In this document: piece by piece, positions 8,524 to 63,234 of the stretch
Layout: the number at the start of each line of letters is the position of its first letter
Position numbering within the stretch: position 1 is the stretch's first letter
Origin: Patescibacteria group bacterium
GTDB taxonomy: Bacteria; Patescibacteriota; Saccharimonadia; Saccharimonadales; JAUPVS01
Reading direction: 5' to 3'
Length of the DNA: 64,000 nucleotides
NCBI GenBank assembly: GCA_030916945.1
Contig: JAUPVS010000003.1
Coordinates: 6,536-70,535, forward strand
Position numbers and translations under genes: made by a program
Notes under the pieces: model-generated
The model's input: only the letters and a program-made list of their open reading frames with translations
Told to the model about the DNA's origin: nothing
The model's database searches: none

Positions 8524-10823
<2,300 letters not shown>

Positions 10824-10831
<8 letters not shown>

Positions 10832-11108
10832 TCTGTCTTTCCTGGGCGTACAAGGCCTGCTGAGCGCCAACCAGTAAACCACCGTCAACTGCAATTAAAT
10901 CGGCCATTAAGGGGTCGCCGGCAATTTGAACGGCCAAATCGTGGGCGGCTTCGTCGCTTAAACCGGCGGCTCGGGCGCCGGCGAAAAGATCACCACCACG
11001 GGCGCGGCCATCAATATCGGCCAAAGCCTCTAGGGCTATAACATGAGCTCGTTGGTCGATTTCTGGTTTAACATCTGTTTCTAGGTCTGGATTGTGTTCG
11101 CGTAACAT
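10824..11108 (-). CDS. operon-embedded acidic Ala/Gly/Asp-rich hypothetical protein (94 aa) between atpA and atpG
   Basis: Its ATG lies 2 nt after the atpA TAG. AAGGAGA sits inside the last atpA codons, 8 nt upstream. Its TAG overlaps the atpG ATG (AATGGCTAG). No family was recognised. Confidence 0.55.
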
Positions 11109-11110
11109 GG

Positions 11111-12682
11111 CTATTTCTCCTTAGTTTCGCTAGGAACCTTAGTTTGTGCCTTGGTTTCAACATATCCTTTGGCAACCTGTTCGGCCACTTTAAGGATAGT
11201 TTTTTGCATATCGTCGGTTGGCTTATCACCCTTGTTTAGGGTGTCCATCAGCTTGCGGTGGTCGCTGTGCAAACGTTGCAACAAAGCCTTCTCGGCGTCT
11301 TTGATTTTTTCGACTGGTACGTGGTCAAAGGCACCGTTGGTGGCGGCCATTAGGGCAGCCGTTTGCTCCCAAACACTCAGCGGTGAGAACTGCGGTTGCT
11401 TAAGCAGCTCGGTCAGGCGTTGACCGCGGTTAATACGTTGTTTGGTTTCGGTATCAAGATCGGTCGAGAACTGGGCAAAGGCAGCTAGTTCGCGGAACTG
11501 AGCCAGGCTCAGACGCAAGTTACCGGCCACGCTCTTAACGGCTTTGGTTTGGGCCGAGCCACCGACGCGTGACACGCTCAAACCAACCGAGATAGCCGGG
11601 CGGATACCCTGGTAGAACAGGCTGGTTTCCATAAAGATCTGACCGTCGGTAATACTAATCACGTTAGTAGGAATATAAGCCGAGATGTCGCCGGCCTGGG
11701 TTTCGATAATTGGCAGGGCGGTTAGTGAACCGGAACCTTTTTCGTCGCTCAATTTAGCCGAACGCTCTAACAAACGCGAGTGCAGGTAGAAAACATCACC
11801 CGGGTAGGCTTCGCGGCCCGGTGGGCGGCGCAGCAACAGTGACATTTGGCGATAGGCGGCAGCGTGCTTAGTCAGGTCATCATAGATGATTAACGCGTGC
11901 TGGCCGTTGTCGCGGAAGTATTCGCCCATGGCGGTTCCGGCATAGGGGGCCAGGTACTGCAACGAAGCCGGGTCACTGGCGCTGGTGGCGATGACAATGG
12001 TTTGGTCCATGACACCTTCGCGCTTGAGGCGTTCGACCATGCGAGCTACCTTAGACAGCTTTTGACCAACGGCGACGTAAATGTTGATAACACCGGTACC
12101 TTGTTGGTGCTGGTTGATCATGGTGTCGATGGCAATGGCAGTTTTACCGGTTTGGCGGTCGCCAATAATTAACTCACGCTGACCGCGACCAATTGGCACC
12201 ATGCCGTCGATGGCCATAATACCGGTCATGAGTGGTTCGTGCACCGACTTGCGATCTAGCACACCAGGGGCAGTGCGTTCTACCAAACCAGTTAGTTTAG
12301 TTTTAACTGGGCCTTTGTCGTCTAGCGGGTTACCTAATGGGTCAACCACGCGACCAACTAGTTCGGGGCCAACCGGCACTTCGAGCACCTTACCAGTTAG
12401 GCGAGCTTTGGCACCAGCCTTAATGAGCGTGTCTTCGCCCAAAAGTACCGTACCAATTTCGTCTTCCATTAAGTTCAAGGCAAAGGCGGTTACTTTGGTA
12501 CCGTCGGTGGCCTCGATCTCGAGCATTTCGTTATAACCGGCGCTGCTTAGGCCGTAGATCCAGGCGATACCGTCACCAACGCGCGTTACCACACCAACGG
12601 TTTCAAAATCACCAGTTCGTTTAAGATCTTCAATGGCTGCCCGAATGTCGGCGCCGAGTTCCTTGATTGATATATCTGCCAT
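11111..12682 (-). CDS. atpA: F1 ATP synthase alpha subunit
   Basis: 523 aa with Walker [10 protein letters not shown] and an alpha-subunit pattern throughout. It has a short Lys/Glu/Thr-rich C-terminal extension. Confidence 0.95.
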
Positions 12683-20507: not shown

Positions 20508-20582
20508 TCCCGGGTAGCTCAATGGTGGAGCAAGAAGCTGTTAACTTCGAGGTTGTCGGTTCGAGTCCGACCCCGGGAGCCA
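20508..20582 (+). tRNA. tRNA-Asn: tRNA-Asn (anticodon GTT), CCA encoded
   Basis: Manual cloverleaf: TCCCGGG TA GCTC AATGGTG GAGC A AGAAG CTGTTAA CTTCG AGGTT GTCGG TTCGAGT CCGAC CCCGGGA G CCA. It has a 7-bp acceptor stem, T33 and A37, the GGTTCGAGTCC T-arm, and discriminator G as in bacterial tRNA-Asn. Confidence 0.9.
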
Positions 20583-25458: not shown

Positions 25459-26859
25459 ATGGTGGATAAAAGTACAATAGCTTGGTTAAAGAGGGTGCCC
25501 CTGCTGCTAATAGCGGGTGTACTACTACTTGCCCTTGCAGCAGTACGAGCACCACAAGCCCAAGCCAGCACCTTTCCGGGAGCAAACGGAAAAGTCTATT
25601 ATTCTGACGAGTTTGGCATTATTAAAAAGGCTAATCTAGATGGTAGTAATGCCCAGACCGTACTAACTAGCGCTACCGACCACCTCAGTCCATCTCCAAA
25701 TGGCACAAAGTTGGTTTTTGACAACTTTAACGGTGCCGACTTTGATTTGCATATAGCTAACATTGACGGCACCAATAACGTCAAGATACTAGGCGGAAGC
25801 AGTAGTGATTCCCACCCCTCCTGGTCGCCCGACGGCAGCAAAGTGGTCTACGTCTGTAATAGCGGCAGCCAGCAGATCTGTACCGTCAACGCCGATGGCA
25901 GCGGCAGGGTACAGCTAACCAATGAGGCGTTAGACAACGAAAACCCCTCCTGGTCGCCCGACGGCACTAAGATTGTCTACCAAAAAACCGCCGGTGGTAA
26001 CGGCGTCGATATTTACGTGATGAATCCGGACGGCAGCAACAAAACCGCTCTGGCTAATACCTCGGCTCACGAGCAAGAACCCCGCTGGTCACCAGACGGC
26101 AGCAAGATTGTTTACTCACGCTTTATAGACAATACCTACTTGTACGAAGTGTACCGCATGAATGCTGACGGCAGTAGCCAGACCAGAATGACTACCCACA
26201 CCGAATACGACGTTTCGCCAACCTACTCACCAGACGGCACCAAGATATATTACCTAAGCGAGAGTAACGGTTTTGGCCTATACAAGCTGTACCGAATGGA
26301 CAGTGATGGCTCGAACCCTACCAAATTAATCGACTCTCAGACAATCGGCTTTGCTGAACTACAAAGCCTTACCTTAGGCCCTACATCTAGCAACACCAAT
26401 CCCACCGTTCAGCTCGTCAACAAAGTAGCCACCATTGATGTACCCGCCATGTTTTCGGACCCTTACGGCGCCGGCATCGACAACAGTACCGTCACCGTCA
26501 CCAGTACGCCCAGCAGCGGCACCACAGCTGTCAATTTAACGACTGGCGTAATCACCTACAATTACACGGCCGTCAGCGTCAGCCGCAACTGGTTGAGCAC
26601 CATCGGCAATATATTCTTTCCCAAAGTCTCGGCGGCCACCACCGACAGTTTTAATTACCAAGTCTGTTCGCAAAGCAGTGCCAGCCTCTGCTCCAGCGGA
26701 ACCGTAACGGTAAGTTTGATTGGCGTATCGAGTAGTGGTTACGGTTCTAGCGGTAGTCTACTAGCTCCAGTCTTCTTGACCGGCGGTCTGATACTTACTT
26801 TTGTAGGCGGTAGCTTGCTCGTAAAAAACCGCAAAGTCGGCTCCAAACCCCAGGCCTAA
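25459..26859 (+). CDS. secreted PD40/TolB-like beta-propeller protein with Ig-like C-terminal region and C-terminal membrane anchor
   Basis: Signal peptide LLLALAAVRAPQAQAS. Repeats PSWSPDGSKVVY, PSWSPDGTKIVY, PRWSPDGSKIVY and PTYSPDGTKIYY. The C-terminal hydrophobic stretch is followed by KNRK. Confidence 0.8.
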   Translation: MVDKSTIAWLKRVPLLLIAGVLLLALAAVRAPQAQASTFPGANGKVYYSDEFGIIKKANLDGSNAQTVLTSATDHLSPSPNGTKLVFDNFNGADFDLHIANIDGTNNVKILGGSSSDSHPSWSPDGSKVVYVCNSGSQQICTVNADGSGRVQLTNEALDNENPSWSPDGTKIVYQKTAGGNGVDIYVMNPDGSNKTALANTSAHEQEPRWSPDGSKIVYSRFIDNTYLYEVYRMNADGSSQTRMTTHTEYDVSPTYSPDGTKIYYLSESNGFGLYKLYRMDSDGSNPTKLIDSQTIGFAELQSLTLGPTSSNTNPTVQLVNKVATIDVPAMFSDPYGAGIDNSTVTVTSTPSSGTTAVNLTTGVITYNYTAVSVSRNWLSTIGNIFFPKVSAATTDSFNYQVCSQSSASLCSSGTVTVSLIGVSSSGYGSSGSLLAPVFLTGGLILTFVGGSLLVKNRKVGSKPQA

Positions 26860-49515: not shown

Positions 49516-50520
49516 CTAGGCTTTGGGTAGGGAAATTGTAACAGTCGTGCCTTTGCCAAGGCTGCTCTCGGCTGTAATTGAACCGCCGTGCAGCTGGACG
49601 ATGTTCTGGGCAATCGCCAGACCTAAGCCGTAGCCGTCGGTGGTGCCTTTGGTGCGCGACGAGTCAGCCCGGTAAAAACGCTCAAAGATGTGCGGTAATT
49701 CTTCTTCACTAATTCCAGGGCCTTGATCGGTTACGGTAATTATAACGTCACCTCGGCCAGGCTTGGCTACAACCGTAACCTGGGACTTTTTAGGACTATA
49801 TTTAACAGCGTTGTCCAACACCGTTACCAAGGCCTCGGTTAAACCGGCTTGGTCACCCAAAACTTGGGCATCAGCCGGAACAGACTGGCTAACTAAATTG
49901 TGTTTGGGTTCGGCCAGTGGTAAAACCCGGTCAACCGCAGCTTGCACCAAAGTGTGAACCGACACGGCTTCTTTAGGTAAGTCAGAGGCTTCTAGTTGAG
50001 CCAGGCGCAGCAAGCCTTCCGACAGCGCCGTTAGTTTATCTAATTCTTCTAAATTACTCTGCAGCTGATCTTTGGCGTCAGCCAGCTTTAGCTTAGGGTC
50101 GCTCAACGTAACCTCAATTTCGGTGCGCATGGCGGTGATCGGCGTGCGCAATTCGTGGCTGGCATCGGCCGTAAAGCGGCTTTGGGCTTGGTGGGCTTCT
50201 TCTATCGGCTTAAGGGTCCGGCGCGCCAGGTAGTAACTTAAAAAGCCGGCCCCAACCATAATTAGCAGGTTAATAAAGATTAGCTGGGCAATGACGTGGC
50301 CGCGAATGTCGTTATAGATGTCTTCGCGCTGCTGAATATAAGATTGCTGGCGAAACGGGCCGGAACCGAACACGCGCTGGACAACTTCGGTCTGGCGATC
50401 AAAACCACGGTCGACCTCATGCATCGACAGATTGTACAAGGCCACACTAAAGAAGATGCTGATGGCCATAATAATACCCAGATACAAACCAGTCAGACGC
50501 AGCGATGTCTGGTGAAACAC
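49516..50520 (-). CDS. membrane sensor histidine kinase
   Basis: 334 aa with two TM segments flanking a short loop. H-box ASHELRTPIT, N-box LDNAVKYSP, G-boxes DQGPGI and GYGLGLAIA. Confidence 0.85.
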   Translation of the reverse strand: MFHQTSLRLTGLYLGIIMAISIFFSVALYNLSMHEVDRGFDRQTEVVQRVFGSGPFRQQSYIQQREDIYNDIRGHVIAQLIFINLLIMVGAGFLSYYLARRTLKPIEEAHQAQSRFTADASHELRTPITAMRTEIEVTLSDPKLKLADAKDQLQSNLEELDKLTALSEGLLRLAQLEASDLPKEAVSVHTLVQAAVDRVLPLAEPKHNLVSQSVPADAQVLGDQAGLTEALVTVLDNAVKYSPKKSQVTVVAKPGRGDVIITVTDQGPGISEEELPHIFERFYRADSSRTKGTTDGYGLGLAIAQNIVQLHGGSITAESSLGKGTTVTISLPKA

Positions 50521-51200
50521 TAGGGTTGCTCCCCAAACACATAACCAAAACCACGCCGCGTATGGATTAGGTCGGGCGAATCAAACGGCTTGTCGATTTT
50601 ATTACGTAGGTAGCCAATATACACCTCGACGGTGTTGGGCAAGATGTCGGCATCGTAGTTCCAAACATTCTGAATCAGCTGGTCACGGGTGATGACGCGA
50701 CCGGGATTGCGCATTAAATATTCTAGTAAAGAAAATTCCAACGCGGTTAGGGTAATCGGGCTACCTGAGCGGGTGACCACAAAGTTTTCGGGATCAAGCG
50801 TGACGTCACCGTGCACCAACACCGTTCCTAAAGCCTGTTGCGGGCGACGCAACAACGCACGTACCCGGGCAATTAGCTCCACAAAAGCGAACGGTTTAAC
50901 CAAGTAGTCGTCGGCACCGGCGTTGAGCCCTTCGGCCCGGTTGAGTACGTGGTCTTTGGCAGTTAACAGTAGGACCGGTGTGTGGTTGTCGGCCTGACGC
51001 AAGGCTTTAAGAATTCCCATGCCATCTACGGCGCCGGGTAACATTCTATCTAAAATAACCAGGTCATATGGTTCGTTTAAGGCCAGTTCTAAACCCTTGT
51101 CACCGTCGTGAGCCATATCAACGGCATACGACTGGCGCTCTAAGCCGCGCTTAACAGCGGCGGCAATTTTGTGATCATCTTCGACAATAAGTATTCGCAT
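50520..51200 (-). CDS. OmpR-family response regulator
   Basis: MRILIVEDD, DLVILDRMLPG, and a winged-helix C-terminus (LTALEFSLLEYL...RGFGYVF). Its stop overlaps the kinase start. Confidence 0.9.
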   Translation of the reverse strand: MRILIVEDDHKIAAAVKRGLERQSYAVDMAHDGDKGLELALNEPYDLVILDRMLPGAVDGMGILKALRQADNHTPVLLLTAKDHVLNRAEGLNAGADDYLVKPFAFVELIARVRALLRRPQQALGTVLVHGDVTLDPENFVVTRSGSPITLTALEFSLLEYLMRNPGRVITRDQLIQNVWNYDADILPNTVEVYIGYLRNKIDKPFDSPDLIHTRRGFGYVFGEQP

Positions 51201-51771: not shown

Positions 51772-54276
51772 ATGATTTGGTACCAGCAAACCCCTCAGGC
51801 AATTCTTAAAGAACTCGAAACCAGCGAGGCCGGCCTAAGCAGCAGTGAGGCTCAAGCCCGCCTAAAAACCTATGGTCCTAACGAGCTGTCTTTAAAGAAA
51901 GAGCCGCTCTGGAAGGTAATTGTCGAGCCGTTCCGCGGAGTCTTTGTAGCCGTCTTGGTGGCGGCCGCCTTTGTCAGCCTAATCAGCCATGAACCACTCG
52001 AAGCCGTTATTATTAGCGTTATCATCTTGGTGGGGGCGGTTATCTTTTACGTTCAACAGTACGCCACCAACCGCGTCTTGCGCAGCCTTAAAAAAACCAG
52101 TGTTCAACAGGTGGCTGTCCAGCGCGACGGTAGCCTGCAGACAATTTCGGCGCTCGACCTCGTGCCGGGCGACATCTTACTGCTGGCCGAAGGCGAACGG
52201 GTACCAGCCGATGCTCGTATCGTTCAGGCCGAAGGCCTCCAGGTCGACGAGTCGGCCTTAACCGGCGAGTCGGTACCGGTTCATAAACACAACTCGGTAC
52301 TTACTAATAAGAAACAGATGTACGAACAAGACAACATGGTCTTTCAGGGCACCTACGTCGTTAGTGGCGGCGGCCAGGCTGTTGTTGTCGAAACTGGCAG
52401 CAAGACAGCTTTTGGTAAGATCGCCCAGTTAGCCGGTGGCGACAAAACCGTTAGCCCGGTCCAAGTTAAAATTGATCACTTAATTTCGTTGATGGTTAAG
52501 GCCATTGGCGTGCTGGCGCTGGTGGTGTTTGCCTTGTCGCTGGCCCGCGGCATTCCGACTTCTGAAGCTCTACGCTTTGTGCTGTCGTTAAGTGTGTCGG
52601 CCGTACCAGAAGGCTTGCCAGTGGCCCTGACCGTTATTATCGTCCTAGGCATGCGCCGTATGGCCAAACACAAGGCACTGGTTCATTCTTTTAAAGCCAT
52701 CGAGGATATTGGTCTAGTTACTACCATTGCCACCGACAAGACCGGCACCCTAACCAAGAACAAGCTAACTATTGTTGACAGCTGGTCCATAGGCAAAGAA
52801 CAGGTGACTACTATTGCCGGTATGACGCTAGACGTTAGCCAGCGCGTCACTGACCCACTCGACCAAGCCATCATCGACAGTATGAAGGCCGAGTCGCACA
52901 CCACCGTTAATCAGGTCTATCCCTTCGACAACGCCCTGCGCATGAGTGGCGCCTACAGCCAGTCACGCCAGACCATCTTCTTTAAGGGTGCGCCAGAGCA
53001 CATTCTGTCGCATTCGACCTTGAGTGATGCTAAGCGCAGCCAAGCCGAGTCAGCCTTGCACAGTTTCGCTTCTAAAGGTTACCGTGTTATTGCCGTCGCC
53101 AAACATAAATTTGCCGGTAAGCCACCTAAGAACCTGACCGGTTTAAAGAATCAGAAGCTCGACTTTATTGGCTTTTTAGCCCTGGCCGATGAGCTACGCG
53201 AAGAGTCCAGTGACGCTATTAAGGCCGCCCAAGCCGCCGGCATTAGTGTCCGGATGATCACCGGCGACCATTACGAAACGGCCTTTAATATTGGTAAAAA
53301 GCTGGGCCTGGCGACACACCCCGACCAAGTAATCCAGGGGACCGAACTGCCTAAAGAAGTTCACGCCCTAGCCCAGACAATTAAAACCAAGACAGTGTTT
53401 GCGCGCATCCTGCCCGAAGATAAGTTCCGCGTCCTGCAGGCGTTAAAACAAACCGAAATCACCGCCATGACGGGCGATGGTGTTAACGATGTACCAGCCC
53501 TAACCAATGCCCATGTTGGCATTGCCATGGGGTCGGGCAGTGACATCGCGCGCGACGCCGGTGGCATCGTCTTGCTCGATGACAACTTTGCCACCATCGT
53601 TAATGCTATCGCCGAAGGGCGCAAAATCTTTGCCAATATCCGGCGCATGCTGTTCTACTTATTAGCCACCTCGATGGGTGAAATGCTAACCATGATCGGT
53701 GCCTTGCTACTGGGCTTTCCACTGCCAATTACCGCTATTCAAATCCTTTGGATCAACCTGGTAACCGATACGGCTTTGGTGCTGCCACTAGGCTTGGAAC
53801 AGGCCGAAGACGGCACTATGCAAAAGCCGCCGCGCCGCCCTAACGAACCGCTACTTAACCGCATCCTACTGAGCCGCCTGGCATTAGTGGCACTGACCAT
53901 GGCAATTGTTACGCTAAGCATCGTGGCCGTCTTAAAAGGGCAGGGGCAGACTACCGAGTACATCCAGACGGTGGCTTTTATGGCCCTGGTTGTCGCCCAG
54001 TGGACCAACGCCTTTAACGCCCGCAGCGAGTACGGTTCGCTCTTAAGCGGCTGGCGCCGACTTAACATCGGTATGCTGGTTGGCTTACTAGTGGGCTTTA
54101 GCCTGCAGATGCTAGTTATGTTTGGGCCGCTGCAAACTGTTTTTGCAATCGCCGATGTACCGCTTGAGGTCTTACTGACCACCTCGGGAATCATGCTTGT
54201 GGCGATAGCCGGTGTGGCCGAAGTTCACAAGTTTGTTAGCCGACTTATTCGCGACGCAGGGCATCAATCGGGTTAA
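51772..54276 (+). CDS. P2-type cation-transporting ATPase (Ca2+/Mg2+-ATPase-like)
   Basis: 834 aa. TGES, the TM4 motif AVPEGLP, the phosphorylation site DKTGTLT, and the hinge TGDGVNDVPAL. Confidence 0.9.
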   Translation: MIWYQQTPQAILKELETSEAGLSSSEAQARLKTYGPNELSLKKEPLWKVIVEPFRGVFVAVLVAAAFVSLISHEPLEAVIISVIILVGAVIFYVQQYATNRVLRSLKKTSVQQVAVQRDGSLQTISALDLVPGDILLLAEGERVPADARIVQAEGLQVDESALTGESVPVHKHNSVLTNKKQMYEQDNMVFQGTYVVSGGGQAVVVETGSKTAFGKIAQLAGGDKTVSPVQVKIDHLISLMVKAIGVLALVVFALSLARGIPTSEALRFVLSLSVSAVPEGLPVALTVIIVLGMRRMAKHKALVHSFKAIEDIGLVTTIATDKTGTLTKNKLTIVDSWSIGKEQVTTIAGMTLDVSQRVTDPLDQAIIDSMKAESHTTVNQVYPFDNALRMSGAYSQSRQTIFFKGAPEHILSHSTLSDAKRSQAESALHSFASKGYRVIAVAKHKFAGKPPKNLTGLKNQKLDFIGFLALADELREESSDAIKAAQAAGISVRMITGDHYETAFNIGKKLGLATHPDQVIQGTELPKEVHALAQTIKTKTVFARILPEDKFRVLQALKQTEITAMTGDGVNDVPALTNAHVGIAMGSGSDIARDAGGIVLLDDNFATIVNAIAEGRKIFANIRRMLFYLLATSMGEMLTMIGALLLGFPLPITAIQILWINLVTDTALVLPLGLEQAEDGTMQKPPRRPNEPLLNRILLSRLALVALTMAIVTLSIVAVLKGQGQTTEYIQTVAFMALVVAQWTNAFNARSEYGSLLSGWRRLNIGMLVGLLVGFSLQMLVMFGPLQTVFAIADVPLEVLLTTSGIMLVAIAGVAEVHKFVSRLIRDAGHQSG

Positions 54277-55483
54277 TCTTGTGGGCACGTTTAGCCGGGA
54301 AGAAAGCTACCAGTAAGCCGACTACCGTCATAAAGCCCACCAAGGCGGCGATCAGCCAGAATGGGGTCGAGAACAGGACAAAACTCTCTTTGACGCCACG
54401 GTTGCGCGCAAAGTTGTTCATTAGCACGTTAACAATCTGACCAGTAGTTACTGCCAAGGTTATACCAATGACAGCGCCAGCTACCGATAGCAAAACGGCT
54501 TCTAATACAAACAACTTGCTCATATCACGGTTACGGCCGCCCAGGGCCATCATCAAACCAATTTCGCGGGTTCTTTCTAGCAATGAGATAGTTAGGGTGT
54601 TAAACATGCCTAGTACGGCCACAATCATGCCAATGGCGCCAAAACCAACCAGTATGACGTTAAAGAACTTGAAGATCTGATTGATCTGTTCGATTGTGTC
54701 GCTCGGTGAACTGGTTTCAAAACCTTGGCTTTGAATTTGCGAACGCAAACCGGCCACATTTTTGGAATTATCAGAAATTAGTTTCATCTGGGTGTAGCTG
54801 GTGACACCAATGTCTGTAAAGATAAAGCTCGGTACATAGACTTCACTGCCGGCCCCTGACTTAACCACGCCAATTACCGTGAACTCATCCTTAACCTCGG
54901 CCTTTTTAGCCTTAGGATCTTTCATTGGTATAACCAGGGTGATCTTTTTATTGATAATCTCACTATTAGACTTGTAGCCGACCGCTTTAACGGCCGCTTC
55001 GTTAAGCATTACGACGCGGTTATCTTCTTTTTTAAGACTGCGACCACCACCCAGCGAAAAGTCAGTTAGCTCCAGATAGCCCTGATCAACACCATAAACA
55101 ATCGTATCAACCGAGCTGCCACGCTGGTTCATGCTACCGGGAAACGAATACTGCAGGCCGTACTTTTCGACATGGGGCAGATTCTTAATTTTATCGACCT
55201 GTTCGTTATTTAGCTGCACCACCTTCGAGTTAGCCGAACTGATGTCAATCGACTTAACCGAACTGTTGCCAACAATTTCTTTGGTAACCAGATTCTGGAT
55301 GCCTAAACCAAACGATAGCAAAAAGAAGATGGCACCGATACCAATAATGACACCGAATATGGTCAAGAAGGTTCGAAGCTTTTTACTTACCAAGTTACGC
55401 CAGGCAATATAGATGACCATGCGCAACGGAATGGCCGTGTAGTGTTTCTTAACGCCGTGGTTATTGGTCTTTTCGGACGGCAT
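54245..55483 (-). CDS. MacB/FtsX-type ABC transporter permease
   Basis: 412 aa. It has an N-terminal TM, a large extracytoplasmic domain of about 230 aa, and a C-terminal FtsX module (LERTREIGLMMALGGRNRDM). Its start overlaps the ATPase gene by 23 nt. Confidence 0.85.
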   Translation of the reverse strand: MPSEKTNNHGVKKHYTAIPLRMVIYIAWRNLVSKKLRTFLTIFGVIIGIGAIFFLLSFGLGIQNLVTKEIVGNSSVKSIDISSANSKVVQLNNEQVDKIKNLPHVEKYGLQYSFPGSMNQRGSSVDTIVYGVDQGYLELTDFSLGGGRSLKKEDNRVVMLNEAAVKAVGYKSNSEIINKKITLVIPMKDPKAKKAEVKDEFTVIGVVKSGAGSEVYVPSFIFTDIGVTSYTQMKLISDNSKNVAGLRSQIQSQGFETSSPSDTIEQINQIFKFFNVILVGFGAIGMIVAVLGMFNTLTISLLERTREIGLMMALGGRNRDMSKLFVLEAVLLSVAGAVIGITLAVTTGQIVNVLMNNFARNRGVKESFVLFSTPFWLIAALVGFMTVVGLLVAFFPAKRAHKINPIDALRRE

Positions 55484-56276
55484 CCATCATCTCCTCGGTT
55501 TTTTTATGCTCCAGGTGCTTGGATCGCGACAGATTATTCAGACGCTGCTTCATGTTATCCAGCAGTTCTTCGGCCGTTTTGGTAATTGAACCGTCGCGCA
55601 TTTCTTGAATCTGGCCATCTTCTATATGGATAAGGTGATCGGCCAGCGGTAAGTATTCCATGTTATGGGTCACCAAAATAATCGTGCGCTTAAACTGGGT
55701 CTGACATTCGCGCAGCAAGTTCATGATCATGTCGCCATTCTTACTATCCAAGCTACCAGTTGGTTCGTCGGCAATAATAAATAGCGGGTCATTAACCAAG
55801 GCTCGGGCTGTGGCGATACGTTGTTGCTCACCACCCGACAGCAGCGACGGGTACTTCTTGGCATACTGACCCATGCTGACGCGGTCTAGGGCGGTCATGG
55901 CAATCTTGGCGGCCTGCGACTTGTTGTAACCCAAAAAGTACAGTGGCATCGACACGTTTTCGATCACACTCAAGCTCTTCACCCAATAGTTAGTCTGGTA
56001 GACAATGCCGATTCGGTTAGCTCTAAAATGAGCTAGTTCGTCGGGCTTAAGCGCGTAGACGTCCTTGCCTTCAAAAAGAACCTGACCCTTGGTGGGCCGC
56101 TGCAAGCCGGTTAAGACGTTCAAGAGGGTAGACTTACCACTACCAGACGGACCATAGATGATGTTAAAACTGTTCTCGGTCAGTTCAAAACTAACTTTCT
56201 GCAAAGGCTTAATGACCTCGTCACCAACCGTAAACTCTTGTTCAATATTAGTAGCTTTAACCAAGATATTTGCCAT
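55461..56276 (-). CDS. ABC transporter ATP-binding protein (MacB/LolD/FtsE-like)
   Basis: [26 protein letters not shown] and [11 protein letters not shown]. It has a C-terminal charged extension of about 45 aa. Its ATG lies 2 nt after the stop of the giant gene. Confidence 0.9.
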
Positions 56277-56278
56277 AG

Positions 56279-59200
56279 CTAGAAACCAAACACTTTCTTG
56301 AGGGTATTAAGTATGATCGTCAAAACGCTGTCCGAGGCCCGGCCAACAATGGCCGACTGAATTTCGCCGGTTCCTGAGTTGCCAGAACGGTCTTTGGACA
56401 CCGGCTGCATACTGTAAACGCGTGAGGTTGGCAGGTCGGATACAATTACGACGTGCTCGGTACTCAGAGCCGAATCTTCGGCCGTCTTGCTGTTAAACAC
56501 GGTGACACCAGCGCCGTCAGCAAAGGCAACCTGGCTGGTCGATGGCTCGTCGGTTCGCCACGACACTACCACTTGGCCGCGAGCTTCGGCGCCAACCCCA
56601 CGGATGGCTGGTTCAATGCTAATATTGCTGATCTTGGGCGGACGAGTATCAAGCGCGGTTCTAAAGGTTTGACGGTCTGACACCGCCAAGTTACCGTCTT
56701 TGTCGCGCGACTGAGCAATTAGGGTGTACTCGCTGTCATCTTCTAGAGCCCTGATCACAATTTCGTGCGACGTAACCTGTTCCGACAACTGAGCGTCAGT
56801 GGTACCACCGCCAACTTTTCCGTATGTAATTAAGGTAGAGGACGGCACGTTGGTATCCCAGGTTATCTTTTGGGTACTGGTCGGTTCGCCGCTAACTGGC
56901 TGGAAGCGCAGATTATTAATCCGCGGGCGAGGTGGGGTAGTAAAGGCAGCTACGCTACCATCGTAGGAGTTGCCTTCGCTGTCCGACGATACCAATTTAT
57001 AGAAGTACTTGCTACCATCGTCCAAGCCCTCGAGCGATACATTATAGACCGACTCACTGAGCGATGTATTAACTGTTTTAAGACCACCGTAACCTTCGTT
57101 CTTGCCGTAATAAACAGCTACCTTGGTAGCGTCCTTAGAAGTAAATTGAATGGTGGCATCGGTTAAACCAACGCGCACGGCTGACACCTCTTTAAGACTT
57201 GGCGCCGGGGAGGTTGTAAAGGTATATTCTTGGCTGGTTCCAGTGTTACCGTCTTCGTCGGTCCACTTAGCCACAAAGTAGTAGGTGGTTCCAGCACTAA
57301 GATTGTCCAGCTCAATGGTGTGGGCGCTAACCTGGGTCGAGTTACCCACTTCCGAAGAAGCGTACTGACCACTGGCCGTACCAATCGCCACCTTGGAGTC
57401 ACTAGCCCGGTCGGTACTCCAACTTATCTTAGCTTTTTTGGTAGTCACGTTGCTAACAGTTGGCTCGGCCACAATCACGGCTGGCGTCGTGAACTTACCA
57501 GTAGGAATCTGGTCGACGTTGCTACTAACCGAACCGCAATTATTAGTGCTGTCACAAGCCTTTACATGGTAGTAGTAGCGTTGCGCCGATAAGCCGGCAT
57601 CGATGTAGGTCGTGCTAGTACTACTACCAACAAAGCTAAAGGTGACATTGTTGGTCGAGCGGTAAACCTTGTAGCTGGCAATTCCAGCACCAGTGTAAGA
57701 CGGCGCGTCCCAGGTTAGCGCTAAGCGCCAGTTACTGGTGGACTTGATTGAAACATCTACGATATCAACGTTCAACGGTATGCCCGGCGACGGCGTATTA
57801 GTCGTAAAGTCGGTTTGGGCGTAGTTAGAGTAGTTAATGTTACCAGACTCGTCCTTGGCCACTAGGTACATCGTGTTCAGGCCGGGCTGCGTACCATAAG
57901 CACCGGTTCCCAGGCTAAGCGCCCCGGCGTTGGTATAAGAGCAGGTGACATCGCTTGGCAGGGTATTAAAGGTGTAGCAGTAAGTCAGGTTGTTGGCGTC
58001 GCCAATAAAGGTATTGGGCGCGAACCAGCTAAACGAGAAGGCGTTGACGGTATTGGTAGAAGGGCTAGGCGCCAAACCTTGCGGTGCGCTGGGTGCCCCC
58101 GAGGTATTAACTTTTAGAGCGGCCGTGACATAACTAGTTGTCACGTTGCCGGCCTGGTCCCAGGTTCGAAACGATACCGTATTGACACCCTCGGCGATGT
58201 TGGCAAAATCGGGCGTGTTTTGGGTGGTATAGCTACCGTCGTTCGCTAGCAAGTCGCTGGAGTCGCCAGTACCACTATGGCTGTCACCGTACCAGGTAGT
58301 ATTACCAATCTTATACTGCAAGCCAGCAATACCACTGTTACTATCGGCCGGCGCGGCAACGCCGCTGGTCGGCCAAGTCAGGCTAGCTGTTTTGGTATTA
58401 ATAAAGCCCGACGGCGCCGTCACATAGCCCGGGTTAGCTGGAGCGGTGTTGTCAAAACGGAAGTAGAACTGGGCACCAGTGTCGGCCACGTTGCCAGCGT
58501 TATCAATTGCCTTAACCGTTAGGTAATAGGCCGAATCACTAGTCGTCAGGGCAGTGCCCAAGTAACTGGCTGTAGCCGTGTCGATGTTTGTTCCAGCAAC
58601 AATAAACTGACAGTTATTACCAGTAGCGACCGGGCTGGTTCCCAATAATCCCTTAGTCGTTACCGGGTCGGCCGTGTTGTCGGTTCCCAAATACAAACAG
58701 TAGCCCTTAATGCCAGAATCAGCATCTGTGCCGGCCGTCCAGCTAAAGTAGGGCGAGGAGCCGTTGGTCCAAGCATTCTGCGCCAGTGACGAGCCACCGG
58801 CGGCTTTAAGAGCCGTCACATTACTGGCGTTAACCGACGGGTCAACACTATCCGAGGTTGACGCCAGGGCCACACCGTCCAGCGTCACTTGCTGAGTGCC
58901 ATCGCCGGTCATAACCGCCTGCCAGGTAATACCACCAAAGGTGACGGGGAATTCATCGATATTGGCGTCGATTGTGGCAATAGCATTAGACATTGACGTA
59001 TCGGTCGACTCTACCCAGGCGCTGCCATTCCAGTGTCGCCAGCTCGAACCACCGTCGTTGGACAGCCGATAGGCAATGGTGCCGCCATTGGCTGTTTCGT
59101 TACTAGTCATATTGTCATAACTTTTAACCCCGGCAGTTCTGACCGCCGATGCCAAAGTTACAGTTTGAGCACTAGCACTATACGGTTTGGTCGTAAGAGT

Positions 59201-62200
59201 CGACCGATAATTATTACTGACGCGAACCTCATCTAAGCGGGCGTCAATGTAGCCAGCGTCTTTAGAAGCGCCGCCACTACCATAGCCACTACCAATGTAG
59301 AGTTTGCTGGTACTGTCGGGCATACTCAAGGTCTTGGTCGCCGAACCGGTAACCGTACCATCAACCACAATCTCCATGGTCGTGCCGTTGTAGCGACCAG
59401 CCACATGATGCCAGTTGGTATCTTGGGTGGTAGCCGAGGCTTGTACAAAACCGTTGTCGCCATAAGACCAAACCATGGCGTCGGTGTTGGCGGTATCACC
59501 CATACCGGCGTAGAGTTTGCCCTGGAAAACTGTCATGGTACCAACGTTTTCAATAATGTTGTTAGTCCAACCAACACCATCACCACCAATTGCCGTCCAA
59601 GTCGTACCGTTGTACTTATAAATCTCACCGTCACCCGTGCTTAGGCCAAGCGAAGCGTAAAGATCGCCGTTATAGACCACCATGCTACGGACTCGTTCGT
59701 AGCCAACGCTTTCTAACCAACCCAAGTTATCGGTCGGCGGGTCAGAACTATCACCACCGATCTTGGTCCAAGACGGCGTCGCATCGCAGGTAGTACATTG
59801 CCAGACTTCGGCATCACTGTTACCAACACCGGCACCGGTTAAGCCAAGTCCGGCCACCAGTTTGTCGTTGTAGACGGCTAGGGAAGCGACTTCTTCATAG
59901 CTGGTGTTCCAACTCGAGTACAAGCCACTACCACCAACTTGTGTCCAAGCTGTGCCGCTGCCGCTGTAGCGATACACCCGGCCTTGGTTGGCGCCGTGTC
60001 CAATACCGGCGTACAGCGTTCCTTTATAAGTAACCAGCGCACCAACGCGAGTGTGCGCCGTGCCCCAGTTGCCAGAAGCGGTGCCACCAATTTGCGTCCA
60101 AGTCGGCGTGCCATCACAGCTGGTACATTCATAGACCCGGGCGTCGCCACCGGCGCTATTGCCAATACCGGCGTAAAGCTTACCGTTGGCAACAGCCAAT
60201 GATTCTACCGTCTCTATGGTAGTGTTCCAGCTCGAACCGGTGCCATCGCCACCAACTTTGGTCCAGGCCGAACCATCGTAACGCCAAACCTCCGAATCGT
60301 TGGTATTGGAGCCAATCCCAACGTAAAGTTTATTCTTATAATTAACCATCGACAGAACTGCCTCGTAGGTATCGGCCGCCCAACCACTATTGATACCTTG
60401 GCCGCCGATCATCGTCCAAACGCTGGTGGCTGGGTCGTATTCCCAAACCGTAGCATTACCGGCGGTGGTATTACCGGTACCAGCGTACAGCTTGCCGCCA
60501 ACCGTAGTCGTAGACTCGACGCTCTGAAAACCAGCTTGACCCCAGCTCTTGTTACGGTACTGACCACCAATTCGGGCACCGCCCCAGGCCGGACTAGTGT
60601 CGCAACTGGTGCAACGCCAAACATGTCCAAGCGTGGCGTTCGACAGCCCAGCGTACAGCGTCGTGCCATCGACTAGCAAGGACTGGACCTGGGTGTGAGT
60701 AGAGTTCCAGCCACTGTTCACGCCATCACCACCAACCTTGGTCCAGGTTGGACTGGTTGAGCAACTAGTACAACGCCAGACTTCATCTTCGTTGGTAGTA
60801 TTGCCTAAGCCAACATAAACCGTCGTGCCATTGGCCACAATATCCCATACTTGGTCGTGGGTGGTACCCCAGTAGGTAACGGTGCTTTCGGCAATCTTGG
60901 TCCAGCCAGCCGTGGCCGTACAAGACGAACTAATATCGCAGCGCCAAACTTGAGCATCGGTCGCGCTGTTTCCAGTTCCGACATATAAGAAGTTACCACT
61001 GGCCGCTAAACCTGTAACGTACTCAAAGGCCGACGCCCAGCTCTGGCCGCCACTGCCGCTGCCGTCGCCACCGCGCTTGGTCCAAACTGGCGTGCCACTG
61101 GCACAGTTGGTAGTACATTGCCAGACTTCGCCATCGCCAGCCGTTAAGCCCAAGCCCACCACTGGGTTGCCGCCAATTAGGGTCATGCTAGAAACAGTTT
61201 CGTAAGTAGTGTTTGCCCAGCTACTATTTACACCATCGCCGCCAATGCGGGCACTACCCCAGTCGGGGGCCGTGTCACAGCTGGTACAGCGCCAGACCTC
61301 AGCCTCGCCGGCGGCGTTCAAGCCTAAACCAACCCATACTGTACTACCGCTAACAGCCATCGAGGCAACCGCCTCGTAACCGCCGGCCGCCGACCAACTA
61401 TTATTTACACTATCACCACCAATCTTGGTCCAGCTAGTGCCATTGAAACGCCACACCTCGGAGTCGGCCCCCGAGTTTTTACCTAAACCAGCATATAGGT
61501 AGGTCGTGCCGTCGGTAGCCATAGACGCCACCGACTCAAAAGCATTGGCTGTTACCTGGTTGGTCCAACTGCCATTAATGCCATCACCAGCGACTTGCTC
61601 CCAGGTACCACCACTGGTGTCATAGCGCCAGATTTCGGCATCGTTACTACTACCACCTAAGGCGGCGTAGACATATGAACCAAGTTTAACCTGCTTGGTA
61701 ACGTTTTGTTTGCCGTTAGTATCCCAGCTACGCTTAATCTTGGCGCCGTTGGCGTTTAATAAATCACCACCGGCTTGCTGGGTCCAGTTCATGCCGCCTG
61801 AGTTTTCTAATTCGTAGGTAACCTTACCAGTTTCGTTATCGTAGTAAAGCTGATACTTACCCTTGTCAATAACGCCCTGCTTATAGGGGTGGCTACCAGC
61901 ACTAAAGGCATTATTAAACTTAACCCAGCCCTCGACGGTATGACTTCCGGTTAGCGACAGCGAGGCCGAGTCGTCGGCGCTGGCATTCTGACTGGAACCG
62001 TTCAGCGCCAGCCCATTATTTAAGTTACCAGTGACAAAACTAGGCGTTCCACTGGTCGTACCGTTGTTACTATTACTACTAGAATCGGTCGCCGTCGTGC
62101 CGCTAGATGAGTCAAGGTGATACAGAGCGGCCGTATTGCCATCATTATCATAATTCTGGGCTTTTAAGCGGGCACTGCTGCCACTGGTCTCGACACCACT

Positions 62201-62683
62201 ACTTAAGTTATATGGAGCAGCGCTAGAAAAGTTCCAAGTATCGTTTAAGTCAGACAGGGCATAGGCTTTTTGGTAAACCCTAAACACTAAAAAGCCAACA
62301 AACAAAATGTAAATCGCTATCAGCGCATAGTGGACTTGTGGATGCTTTTCGTAGTTATGCCAGCGATCGTACCAGGCCACTTTTCGTCTTAAGTGTTCAT
62401 GTGGACGAACTGCCACATGGTGATGGACGACTTTGCTGCCGCGGCGCACGCCCACCGCTGTTACAACGGCGATTTTTTTGGAATGACGACCGGCCGTCGC
62501 GACACCCTTTTTGGCGTGATGAGCCGTTGTCTTGGCTGACCTGACAGCTACTGGCTTGACTACTCGATGTGTGTTTTTAAGGGCTTTTACAGATGAGTTC
62601 TTGGCTACGCGTAACCCAGAACCGGCTTTTTTGGTTGCTTTTTTGACAAAAAGCAAGCTAGCTGTCTGCTTGTTTTTCCCCAT
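56279..62683 (-). CDS. giant membrane-anchored surface protein (2134 aa): basic cytoplasmic tail, one TM, a split LamG-type domain enclosing a 14-blade repeat array, then Ig-like and FN3-like arrays
   Basis: The start is set at ATG 62683 (MGKNKQ). The TM is ALIAIYILFVGFLVFRVY. The Laminin_G_3-type halves are GNLNNGLALNGS...HTVEGWVKFN and TNWHHVAGRYNGTTMEIVVDG...LYIGS...IDARLDEVRVSN. The repeats and C-terminal modules are listed as separate features. Confidence 0.85.
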   Translation of the reverse strand: MGKNKQTASLLFVKKATKKAGSGLRVAKNSSVKALKNTHRVVKPVAVRSAKTTAHHAKKGVATAGRHSKKIAVVTAVGVRRGSKVVHHHVAVRPHEHLRRKVAWYDRWHNYEKHPQVHYALIAIYILFVGFLVFRVYQKAYALSDLNDTWNFSSAAPYNLSSGVETSGSSARLKAQNYDNDGNTAALYHLDSSSGTTATDSSSNSNNGTTSGTPSFVTGNLNNGLALNGSSQNASADDSASLSLTGSHTVEGWVKFNNAFSAGSHPYKQGVIDKGKYQLYYDNETGKVTYELENSGGMNWTQQAGGDLLNANGAKIKRSWDTNGKQNVTKQVKLGSYVYAALGGSSNDAEIWRYDTSGGTWEQVAGDGINGSWTNQVTANAFESVASMATDGTTYLYAGLGKNSGADSEVWRFNGTSWTKIGGDSVNNSWSAAGGYEAVASMAVSGSTVWVGLGLNAAGEAEVWRCTSCDTAPDWGSARIGGDGVNSSWANTTYETVSSMTLIGGNPVVGLGLTAGDGEVWQCTTNCASGTPVWTKRGGDGSGSGGQSWASAFEYVTGLAASGNFLYVGTGNSATDAQVWRCDISSSCTATAGWTKIAESTVTYWGTTHDQVWDIVANGTTVYVGLGNTTNEDEVWRCTSCSTSPTWTKVGGDGVNSGWNSTHTQVQSLLVDGTTLYAGLSNATLGHVWRCTSCDTSPAWGGARIGGQYRNKSWGQAGFQSVESTTTVGGKLYAGTGNTTAGNATVWEYDPATSVWTMIGGQGINSGWAADTYEAVLSMVNYKNKLYVGIGSNTNDSEVWRYDGSAWTKVGGDGTGSSWNTTIETVESLAVANGKLYAGIGNSAGGDARVYECTSCDGTPTWTQIGGTASGNWGTAHTRVGALVTYKGTLYAGIGHGANQGRVYRYSGSGTAWTQVGGSGLYSSWNTSYEEVASLAVYNDKLVAGLGLTGAGVGNSDAEVWQCTTCDATPSWTKIGGDSSDPPTDNLGWLESVGYERVRSMVVYNGDLYASLGLSTGDGEIYKYNGTTWTAIGGDGVGWTNNIIENVGTMTVFQGKLYAGMGDTANTDAMVWSYGDNGFVQASATTQDTNWHHVAGRYNGTTMEIVVDGTVTGSATKTLSMPDSTSKLYIGSGYGSGGASKDAGYIDARLDEVRVSNNYRSTLTTKPYSASAQTVTLASAVRTAGVKSYDNMTSNETANGGTIAYRLSNDGGSSWRHWNGSAWVESTDTSMSNAIATIDANIDEFPVTFGGITWQAVMTGDGTQQVTLDGVALASTSDSVDPSVNASNVTALKAAGGSSLAQNAWTNGSSPYFSWTAGTDADSGIKGYCLYLGTDNTADPVTTKGLLGTSPVATGNNCQFIVAGTNIDTATASYLGTALTTSDSAYYLTVKAIDNAGNVADTGAQFYFRFDNTAPANPGYVTAPSGFINTKTASLTWPTSGVAAPADSNSGIAGLQYKIGNTTWYGDSHSGTGDSSDLLANDGSYTTQNTPDFANIAEGVNTVSFRTWDQAGNVTTSYVTAALKVNTSGAPSAPQGLAPSPSTNTVNAFSFSWFAPNTFIGDANNLTYCYTFNTLPSDVTCSYTNAGALSLGTGAYGTQPGLNTMYLVAKDESGNINYSNYAQTDFTTNTPSPGIPLNVDIVDVSIKSTSNWRLALTWDAPSYTGAGIASYKVYRSTNNVTFSFVGSSTSTTYIDAGLSAQRYYYHVKACDSTNNCGSVSSNVDQIPTGKFTTPAVIVAEPTVSNVTTKKAKISWSTDRASDSKVAIGTASGQYASSEVGNSTQVSAHTIELDNLSAGTTYYFVAKWTDEDGNTGTSQEYTFTTSPAPSLKEVSAVRVGLTDATIQFTSKDATKVAVYYGKNEGYGGLKTVNTSLSESVYNVSLEGLDDGSKYFYKLVSSDSEGNSYDGSVAAFTTPPRPRINNLRFQPVSGEPTSTQKITWDTNVPSSTLITYGKVGGGTTDAQLSEQVTSHEIVIRALEDDSEYTLIAQSRDKDGNLAVSDRQTFRTALDTRPPKISNISIEPAIRGVGAEARGQVVVSWRTDEPSTSQVAFADGAGVTVFNSKTAEDSALSTEHVVIVSDLPTSRVYSMQPVSKDRSGNSGTGEIQSAIVGRASDSVLTIILNTLKKVFGF
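56357..57769 (-). repeat. tandem FN3-like modules of about 95 aa at the C-terminus of the giant protein
   Basis: The recurring pattern is x(I/V)xW(x)TDxxSxSxVxYG...T(H)x(I/V)xLxxLxxxTxYY(F)...D..GN...S....F(T/R)T. At least four copies were seen (KISWSTDRASDSKVAIG, IQFTSKDATKVAVYYG, ITWDTNVPSSTLITYG, VVSWRTDEPSTSQVAFA), preceded by a classic FN3 (ALTWDAPSYTGAGIASYKVYRS). Confidence 0.65.
59456..61795 (-). repeat. 14 tandem protein-level repeats of about 45-65 aa (propeller-blade-like) inside the giant gene
   Basis: Consensus: W(T)x(I/V)GGDG(V/I)NxSW...(V/A)xS(L/M)...G.LYAG(L/I)G......(A/S)EVW(R/Q)(Y/C). It is seen 14 times between ORF-track residues about 313 and 1092. Confidence 0.75.
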
Positions 62684-62841
62684 AATGTTACCTTGTTTAA
62701 TATAGCATAAAAGCAATGAATTTGAATACATTTTTTACACAGTTGCAAGACGATTCAATTTTGCAAATTTTACAATTCTGTTGTCAAATTAACTTTACCT
62801 AGCCCCGCCTGGCAGGCTATACTTAGGTCAAAGGGGGATCT

Positions 62842-63234
62842 ATGACAGAAAAAGATAATTCAGTTCCAGTACCAACTTACTTAACCATCGGGAAGGTAAT
62901 CTCTTACGCCCTGTATGCCTGGGTGATTTTTGGCATCATCGTGCTTGGTTTGCGGGTTTTCTTGTTGGCGTTCTCGGCCAACAGCACAACGCCGTTTGTG
63001 GAGTTTATCTATAATACTTCGGCCAGCTTCTTACAGCCTTTCCGGGGAATCTTTCCACCTAAGCCCATCGGCCAAACTGGCTACCTGGATGTCGCTGCCT
63101 TGTTTGCGATGATTATATACAGTCTACTGGCCTGGGGCTTCTCGGCACTGATCGAGTACATCAAATACAAGATTAACAAGTTCAAACTAGCCAACGAACC
63201 TACCAAACCAGTCAGGAGCCGTAATGCCAACTAA
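62842..63234 (+). CDS. YggT-family-like membrane protein
   Basis: 130 aa. LQPFRGIFPPKPIGQTGYLDVAALFAMIIY resembles the YggT signature. AAAGGGGGA lies upstream. Confidence 0.55.
   Translation: MTEKDNSVPVPTYLTIGKVISYALYAWVIFGIIVLGLRVFLLAFSANSTTPFVEFIYNTSASFLQPFRGIFPPKPIGQTGYLDVAALFAMIIYSLLAWGFSALIEYIKYKINKFKLANEPTKPVRSRNAN

Follow-up and report, generated by a model that had tools for sequence, protein, structure and literature searches.

A giant protein gene and a MacB-type ABC transporter pair form a conserved linked module in Patescibacteria

We analyzed a 64-kb window of Patescibacteria DNA (a stretch of 64,000 nucleotides from contig JAUPVS010000003.1, order Saccharimonadales, whose own positions are used throughout) and identified a module of three minus-strand genes, encoding a giant protein with a putative signal peptide, an ATP-binding cassette (ABC) ATPase, and a MacB-type permease. 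In 75 of 75 genome loci the giant gene was followed directly, on its own strand, by the ATPase and permease genes; the pair also followed it in 61 of 61 metagenome loci. We consider it quite probable that the giant protein and the ABC pair are functionally dedicated to each other. A first-pass annotation of the same DNA had tied the transporter to the giant protein and set it apart from a generic drug pump; synteny, and linkage kept through rearrangement, strongly support this core idea. Its guess of Patescibacteria was also right.

Linkage of the giant gene and the transporter pair

The module and the most conserved part of the giant protein were located as follows.

56279..62683, minus strand: giant gene, 2,134 amino acids (aa) plus TAG stop, from the open reading frame (ORF) list and its translation
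55461..56276, minus strand: ABC ATPase gene, 271 aa, Pfam ABC_tran
54245..55483, minus strand: MacB-type permease gene, 412 aa, four transmembrane helices, Pfam MacB_PCD and FtsX
56282..56344, minus strand: conserved tail of the giant protein, GRASDSVLTIILNTLKKVFGF, residues 2114-2134, an amphipathic helix ending in FG[FL]

Full-length homologues of the giant protein, at 50-80% identity, fell into more than 120 clusters, and the named ones were labelled Saccharibacteria or Saccharimonadales. A scan of one genome per species identified relatives in 143 species, of which 80 loci were kept; the count of 75 required at least 2.1 kb of downstream sequence and includes 2 places that were fetched twice. 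Truncated contigs agreed with the same giant-ATPase-permease linkage. The metagenome scan contributed 80 further loci, 61 of them with enough downstream sequence. Synteny across Patescibacteria had been proposed as the check on a link between these genes, and it passes in both data sets. In the reverse direction, 2 permease homologues each led back to a giant gene. The distance from the giant stop codon to the ATPase start was at most 5 nt in 71 of 76 loci, and the overlap between the ATPase and permease genes was mostly 4 nt. Among gene families flanking the module within 4 kb, the commonest occurred in 11 of 44 loci and none exceeded 25%. Because the linkage persists while the flanking genes change, these comparisons indicate that the trio is held together by selection and not by recent common ancestry. 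Other MacB-type pairs encoded in the same loci were only 25-45% identical to the linked pair, which therefore forms an orthologous group of its own.

The tail was carried by 76 of 76 loci examined and by 224 of 232 large homologues across lineages, with the consensus I-x-[GP]-[RK]-A-[ST]-[DE]-x-[VA]-L-x-[IL]-[VI]-[LIF]-x-x-L-x-x-[VI]-F-G-[FL], in which I-23, [RK]-20, L-14, L-7, F-3, and G-2 were at least 90% conserved in large homologues. AlphaFold2 (AF2) predicted an isolated helix at residues 2118-2132, outside the folded domains (predicted local distance difference test, pLDDT, ~56), and the hydrophobic moment of the tail was 0.40. No hydrophobic run of transmembrane length was present in the tail, and no NCBIfam sorting-signal model matched the last 150 aa or 2 distant tails at E <=10. 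In the window and 170 loci, no ORFs other than the large proteins and their tandem paralogues bore the tail. This C-terminal amphipathic helix is the best candidate for a contact with the permease.

A locus at 39% identity (L077) prompted a second, wider homologue search, which recovered full-length relatives with 43-50% identity over ~2,000 aa labelled Moranbacteria, Woesebacteria, Pacebacteria, and Microgenomates. Three of these loci (L086-L088) had the standard gene order; in L089 the giant gene was followed by the permease gene, with the ATPase gene shifted upstream onto the opposite strand, and in L090 the order was ATPase, permease, then giant. Outside Saccharimonadia, the permeases measured 683-784 aa owing to an N-terminal extension and a ~320-aa insertion in the extracytoplasmic domain, and most ATPases examined had N-terminal extensions as well. 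In 45 metagenome loci only the C-terminal half of the giant protein (stalk and tail) matched, though the contig ran on upstream, and the pair was present; the N-terminal halves that replaced the usual one included Kelch repeats, DUF2341 with LamG, and others. One locus (L006) had 2 tandem modules, each with its own pair, and another (L122) had 2 tail-bearing proteins with different heads followed by a single pair.

Within the window, the three consecutive minus-strand genes and all their coordinates agreed on checking with those first annotated. The giant gene ends in TAG at 56281-56279 and the ATPase ATG lies at 56276-56274, leaving 2 nt (CT) between them; the lack of a Shine-Dalgarno sequence was also confirmed, as AGGAGG-like sequence is absent upstream of that ATG. 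The permease gene begins inside the ATPase gene, with its ATG at 55483 and an overlap of 23 nt. Since permease residues 1-20 are weakly conserved among relatives, the protein may instead start at Met22 (55420). The longest possible giant ORF begins at 62731; the start at 62683 is the one chosen by gene callers on the database protein P0001, which is 2,134 aa long and 100% identical to the giant protein.

The unit is bounded on both sides by genes on the other strand, and one promoter-like site precedes it.

51772..54276, plus strand (by convergence): P-type ATPase gene, from the ORF list
62842..63234, plus strand (by divergence): YGGT gene, from the ORF list
62758..62787, minus strand: promoter-like site TTGACA-18-CAAAAT upstream of the giant gene, a consensus match in a region whose site count is not above shuffled sequence

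The first-pass annotation had seen no room for internal promoters, which overstates the case, as promoters can sit within coding sequence. In a consensus scan of the region, promoter-like and terminator-like sites were as numerous as in shuffled sequence, so the scan neither supports nor excludes internal starts; the site upstream of the giant gene was the sole promoter-like site that stood out by position. The 3' ends of the permease and P-type ATPase genes overlap by 32 nt (54245..54276), leaving no space for an intergenic terminator.

Architecture and conservation of the giant protein and its transporter

The giant protein comprised an N-terminal region resembling a signal peptide, a head, and a long stalk that precedes the tail.

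62258..62683, minus strand: extended signal-peptide-like N-terminus, residues 1-142, with a basic variable region, a His/Trp-rich motif, a hydrophobic helix (118-138), and AYA followed by LSD
62327..62425, minus strand: motif HHHxAxRPHxxLxxRxxWYxxWHxWxxHxHVH, residues 87-119, from the alignment consensus
61694..62236, minus strand: jelly-roll (LamG-like) domain, residues 150-330, at the predicted mature N-terminus; AF2 all-beta, pLDDT 80-95; 53% conserved
59459..61693, minus strand: ~14 four-stranded blades, residues 331-1075, from AF2 and Foldseek; median identity 42%
59189..59458, minus strand: Laminin_G_3 or concanavalin-like segment, residues 1076-1165; Pfam PF13385, E 1.6e-10, residues 1056-1161
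56345..59188, minus strand: array ("stalk") of ~nine Ig/FN3-type beta-sandwich domains, residues 1166-2113, from AF2, Foldseek, and Pfam

Residues 118-138 were the only hydrophobic segment in the giant protein. Among 42 aligned homologues, Ala stood at -1 and a small or aliphatic residue at -3 in nearly all, and distant homologues from other classes had short, ordinary signal peptides with the same ending; pLDDT fell below 50 at residues 141-147. Because the AxA motif is conserved and other classes have short signal peptides, residues 1-142 probably form an extended, cleaved signal peptide, the cleavage being read from the motif. Such cleavage would leave the mature giant protein, expected to begin at Leu143, without an N-terminal membrane anchor. 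A juxtamembrane part of the protein, as first envisaged for an interface with the permease, is thus unlikely, given the hydrophobic helix followed by a conserved AxA motif and the ordinary signal peptide of other lineages. The protein has 20 cysteines in close pairs, 6 of them invariant, consistent with an extracytoplasmic location. The His/Trp-rich motif lies on the cytoplasmic side, directly before the hydrophobic core of the signal peptide; it is kept in Saccharimonadia and absent from homologues of other classes.

The AF2 model of the head (pLDDT 83, predicted TM-score [pTM] 0.73) placed the jelly roll before the ~14 blades, which we read, on the strength of the model, as a tandem pair of 7-bladed beta-propellers. 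Foldseek matched the blades best, among Protein Data Bank structures, to double-propeller proteins, namely the GH74 xyloglucanases 6mgl and 3a0f, Elp2, and the BT4663 sensor. The matches to the GH74-type fold (6mgl, 3a0f, 7kn8) had just 12-14% identity and TM-scores of 0.27-0.38, no Pfam GH74 or BNR match was found in the giant protein, and Pfam Kelch matches in the propeller region were weak. Seven blades (59783..61288) bear closely spaced Cys pairs, mostly CTSC-like with at most 5 residues between them; these pairs are not kept in most homologues and are probably lineage-specific disulfide staples. A search with the N-terminal half against a library without taxonomy or context returned 148 representatives at E <=1e-30, and this collapse to 148 is consistent with slow evolution.

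The stalk was modelled by AF2 as an extended array (pLDDT 83, pTM 0.41), with Foldseek matches to titin/MyBP-C, contactin, and gp130 and Pfam matches to fn3 and Pur_ac_phosph_N. We measured regional conservation as the median identity to the window over 52 loci. It was highest in the C-terminal tail of the giant protein (75%) and in the transmembrane parts of the permease (68-75%), followed by the Ig/FN3 stalk (67%, residues 1281-2110) and the ATPase domain (64%), and it was lower in the permease extracytoplasmic domain (43%), the propellers (42%), and the cytoplasmic N-terminus of the giant protein (16%). Such slow evolution of a surface stalk, on a par with the ATPase, is unusual and speaks against a host-specific adhesin. 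The label "adhesin-like" in the first-pass annotation was a guess from domain composition, and it fits poorly with a stalk at 67% against 64% for the ATPase domain, while binding of glycans or proteins would be in keeping with the LamG, propeller, and FN3 domains. For comparison, a paper on Patescibacterium danicum reports that, for the very large proteins of that organism (>5,000 aa, FhaB-type), full-length homologues could not be detected elsewhere in the phylum (PMC11809585); against this, the full-length conservation of the present family stands out.

Stalk residues 1281-2113 (56345..58843) showed few indels across 59 species, and none of the explanations offered below accounts for constraint along the whole stalk. 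Residues 1631-1731 (57491..57793; DIVDVSIK...ACDSTNNCG), at ~75% identity, were among the most conserved in the stalk; they were poorly predicted by AF2 (pLDDT 31-63) despite a Pfam fn3 call.

The MacB-type identity first given to the transporter was upheld by matches of the permease to MacB_PCD (E 2e-21, residues 38-229) and FtsX (E 1e-19), both exceeding the gathering scores, and the ATPase matched ABC_tran (E 5e-30). Hydropathy gave permease transmembrane segments at residues 35-67, 269-303, 321-355, and 367-399, and the extracytoplasmic domain claimed for this protein was present at a revised size, ~210 aa by hydropathy, near the ~230 aa first given.

54668..55300, minus strand: permease extracytoplasmic domain, residues 62-272, between the first and second transmembrane helices, from hydropathy and MacB_PCD

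Across 73 ATPase orthologues the Walker A Lys, Q-loop, signature, Walker B Asp, catalytic Glu, and H-loop His were invariant, with the lone exception of one Ser replacing one signature Gly. The nearest NCBIfam models of the ATPase were LolD, FtsE, and the MacB nucleotide-binding domain, all under their cut-offs, and it also scored well, yet under cut-offs, against bacteriocin-export and DevA-type models. Bit scores against cut-offs were 100 vs 966 for the MacB equivalog, 51 vs 362 for lolCE, 206 vs 308 for LolD, 30-38 vs 225-255 for the FtsX models, and 174 vs 265 for FtsE. With scores so far under the cut-offs, the proteins share the MacB/FtsX architecture and belong to none of the MacB, LolC/E/D, or FtsE/X families; their domain matches place the pair in the type VII (MacB/FtsX-family) ABC architectural class. 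The solved structures closest to the permease were Bacillus subtilis YtrF (9o9x, E 1.5e-26, a match that spans permease residues 175-412 only), MacB (5lil, 5gko, 5nik), and Streptococcus pneumoniae Spr0695 (5xu1). Lacking a transmembrane channel, MacB-family transporters work on partners outside the cytoplasm, as FtsEX does with hydrolase activators, LolCDE with lipoproteins, and MacB with periplasmic substrates.

Comparison with known systems and possible modes of action

We compared the module with characterized systems that share parts of its organization. FtsEX, with its partners EnvC, PcsB, CwlO, and RipC, resembles it in combining an FtsX-family permease with a separate ATPase, in having no transported solute, and in working in monoderm envelopes; there, a Sec-secreted, unanchored partner is bound by the extracytoplasmic domain via a helical element and governed by the ATPase cycle, an arrangement that is proposed here from the genes. 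However, the present permease is not an FtsX orthologue and its extracytoplasmic domain is of the larger MacB_PCD type, and the partner is ~2,000 aa long, has no hydrolase domain, offers a single C-terminal helix as the candidate contact, and is encoded in the operon. MacB of MacAB-TolC has the same permease architecture (TM1, MacB_PCD, FtsX TM2-4), whereas the ATPase here is a separate polypeptide, and no gene for a membrane-fusion protein (MacA/HlyD) or an outer-membrane channel was found in the window unit or the annotated neighbourhoods examined. We take the organism of the window to be monoderm, as it has been described.

LolCDE and Aat (AatPABCD) are likewise MacB-type machines whose target is a protein element embedded in the membrane, and Aat serves one dedicated protein encoded nearby. 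Their clients, in contrast, are N-terminally lipidated and handed to a carrier or an outer-membrane channel, and the present module has an AxA site in place of a lipobox Cys, with no acyltransferase or acceptor. The YtrEF pair (9o9x) is a monoderm MacB-type pair and includes the closest solved permease by sequence; no large secreted partner has been described for it. In B. subtilis, YtrEF has been linked to cell-wall properties (PMC8060467). Type 1 secretion of RTX adhesins (LapA/LapBCE, SiiE) also joins a surface protein that is giant, rich in repeats, and marked by a C-terminal signal to an adjoining dedicated ABC transporter, but it depends on an HlyB-type exporter together with a fusion protein and TolC and involves no N-terminal signal peptide, unlike the Sec-type signal here; no RTX or HlyD matches were found among the module proteins in Pfam or NCBIfam. 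Sorting-signal systems (sortase/LPXTG, exosortase/PEP-CTERM, archaeosortase/PGF-CTERM, and the C-terminal domain of type IX secretion) share the principle of a short common C-terminal tag, borne by proteins whose functional parts differ, with a dedicated membrane machine, whereas the tag here has no transmembrane helix and basic tail, the machine is an ABC complex and not a transpeptidase, and the genes are usually paired 1:1. For each of MacAB-TolC, FtsEX, LolCDE, and type 1 secretion, a defining feature was looked for in the module and not found, and by its sequence features the module is a member of none of them. We found no description of the module in the part of the full-text literature that is searchable.

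We lean toward the view that the transporter acts directly on the giant protein, judging from the conserved genes, and by analogy we put forward, as a tentative reading held with less than even confidence, an FtsEX-like tether and actuator that works through the C-terminal helix. The giant protein would be exported by Sec and its signal sequence cut after the AxA motif. The mature protein of ~2,000 aa would then consist of a jelly roll and double-propeller head, nine Ig/FN3 domains, and the C-terminal helix, with no membrane anchor of its own. A permease dimer would bind this helix on the outer face of the membrane and so tether the protein to the cell, and cytoplasmic ATP binding and hydrolysis, relayed through the permease, would move or switch it. 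We favor tethering and actuation because the stalk and tail, and not the head, travel with the pair, because the cleaved protein would lack an anchor, and because FtsEX is the closest monoderm analogy. The ATPase retains all catalytic residues, and the same short amphipathic helix closes every large protein of the family, irrespective of the N-terminal half it carries.

Several points weigh against this mechanism. The permease extracytoplasmic domain is 43% conserved against 75% for the tail, which speaks against contact, since conservation of an interface might be expected on both of its sides. FtsEX partners bind via N-terminal coiled coils, as opposed to one C-terminal helix, and are usually encoded away from ftsEX. 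An amphipathic helix could also settle into the membrane surface by itself, and the presumed cleavage of the signal peptide is inferred from nothing beyond a motif. Two loci of one sequence type (L128 and L134), the only exception to the linkage seen, have 2 tandem tail-bearing genes with no ABC gene within ~1.8 kb. Proteins with either PF13385 (LamG) or PF16656 (Pur_ac_phosph_N) are absent from the published annotation of the cultivated oral species Southlakia epibionticum, which appears from its annotation to lack the module; its transposon sequencing (Tn-seq) data therefore do not bear on it.

Extraction and release in the manner of LolCDE or Aat is the chief competitor, although we think it unlikely. 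Once the protein had been exported by Sec, the helix would be stuck in the outer leaflet or in a permease cavity, and the ABC complex would pull it out and expel it, freeing the protein to the cell wall, a surface layer, or the medium, so that the transporter would be a turnover machine and not a tether. The same linkage evidence serves this account, the tail is both hydrophobic and amphipathic, and the single pair that follows 2 tail-bearing genes in L122 suits an enzyme-like handler; LolCDE extracts lipoprotein anchors, and the MacB-like Aat system exports a single dedicated lipidated protein. It is harder to reconcile with the tandem modules of L006, each with its own pair, which fit a stable pairing better, with the cost of freeing a 2,000-aa protein for a genome of ~1 Mb, and with the loci examined, in which no gene for a LolA-like acceptor or carrier and no wall-binding domain stood beside the module. 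Quite unlikely, in our estimate, is an indirect coupling, in which the pair would move a small molecule (a lipid, glycan precursor, peptide, or antimicrobial) that is required, bound, or provoked by the large protein, the genes being co-transcribed for co-regulation while the proteins never meet. In annotations, MacB-type pairs mostly bear the name of peptide or drug exporters, the sub-threshold ATPase scores against bacteriocin-export and DevA-type models point the same way, and a moderately conserved extracytoplasmic domain needs no protein partner. What such coupling leaves unexplained is an invariant, non-structural tail that travels with the pair while the heads are swapped, together with the tandem modules with cognate pairs and the near-universal translational coupling.

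That a giant adhesin gene merely inherited its place beside a common transporter pair, with no functional meaning, is highly improbable and close to refuted: MacB-type pairs are abundant in these genomes, and several loci hold second, unrelated ones, but the linkage is kept at 40-50% identity across classes and in three gene orders, while flanking genes are common to at most 25% of loci. We rejected a protein translocase, as MacB-type permeases lack a channel and the large protein already carries a Sec-type signal, and also a polymorphic toxin with an immunity pump, as a toxin domain is missing and the C-terminus, far from varying, shows the highest conservation in the protein.

If the transporter does act on the giant protein, the mechanotransmission family would gain a new class of partner, a giant secreted protein recognized by a C-terminal tag, and since partner and machine are encoded together, the pairing is directly testable. 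The conserved tail also provides a simple sequence handle for finding clients in any genome. Beyond this module, we regard it as conceivable, though rather doubtful, that the FG[FL]-ended helix and the MacB-type pair constitute an unrecognized surface-protein sorting and anchoring system of Patescibacteria. Its clients would be large Sec-exported proteins that combine a common, slowly evolving Ig/FN3 stalk with exchangeable heads (double propeller, Kelch, DUF2341/LamG, and others), and an ATP-powered type VII ABC complex would hold them at the membrane and drive them mechanically from there. Patescibacteria account for much of bacterial diversity and live attached to other cells, Saccharibacteria are naturally competent (PMC10633639), and to our knowledge almost nothing has been established on how their surfaces are built. 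The module takes up ~8.4 kb of a genome of ~1 Mb and is conserved across classes like housekeeping proteins; this cost and this level of conservation make it likely that it is central to the envelope or to host contact. A regular surface layer has been seen on ultrasmall groundwater bacteria, and we know of no assignment of its composition; large tail-bearing proteins might form it.

Locus variants and window context

In the sequence type represented by L128 and L134, the 2 tandem tail-bearing genes are followed by ~1.9 kb (L128 6600..8485, also in L134) in which ORFs reach at most 81 aa and similarity to ABC genes and matches to Rfam are lacking. An alternative genetic code for this segment was considered and is unlikely, as the adjoining 1,610-aa ORF is intact under table 11. 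The permease of the locus labelled Microgenomates (L088, 13752..16053) is present as 2 ORFs, MacB_PCD of 574 aa and FtsX of 197 aa, which overlap by 17 nt and represent either a real split or a frameshift. Upstream of the module in a Woesebacteria locus (L087, 1..5899), at a distance of ~1 kb and on the opposite strand, is a gene whose 3,760-aa product contains Peptidase_M23. Module-bearing contigs were also found under the labels "Bacillota bacterium" (L039, 126 kb) and "Thiothrix sp." (P0303, 9.8 kb), which are probably binning or labelling errors and not occurrences outside Patescibacteria. The "fibronectin III" protein SEML1_0890 of S. epibionticum, essential by Tn-seq, was rejected as a homologue of the giant protein, being just 195 aa long.

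No second MacB-type pair was identified in the 64-kb window. Elsewhere in it, we identified genes for an AddA-like helicase-nuclease (257..3538), the alpha and beta subunits of an F-type ATP synthase (8524..12682), one tRNA-Asn (20508..20582), a PD40 propeller protein (25459..26859), and a histidine kinase and response regulator pair (49516..51200).

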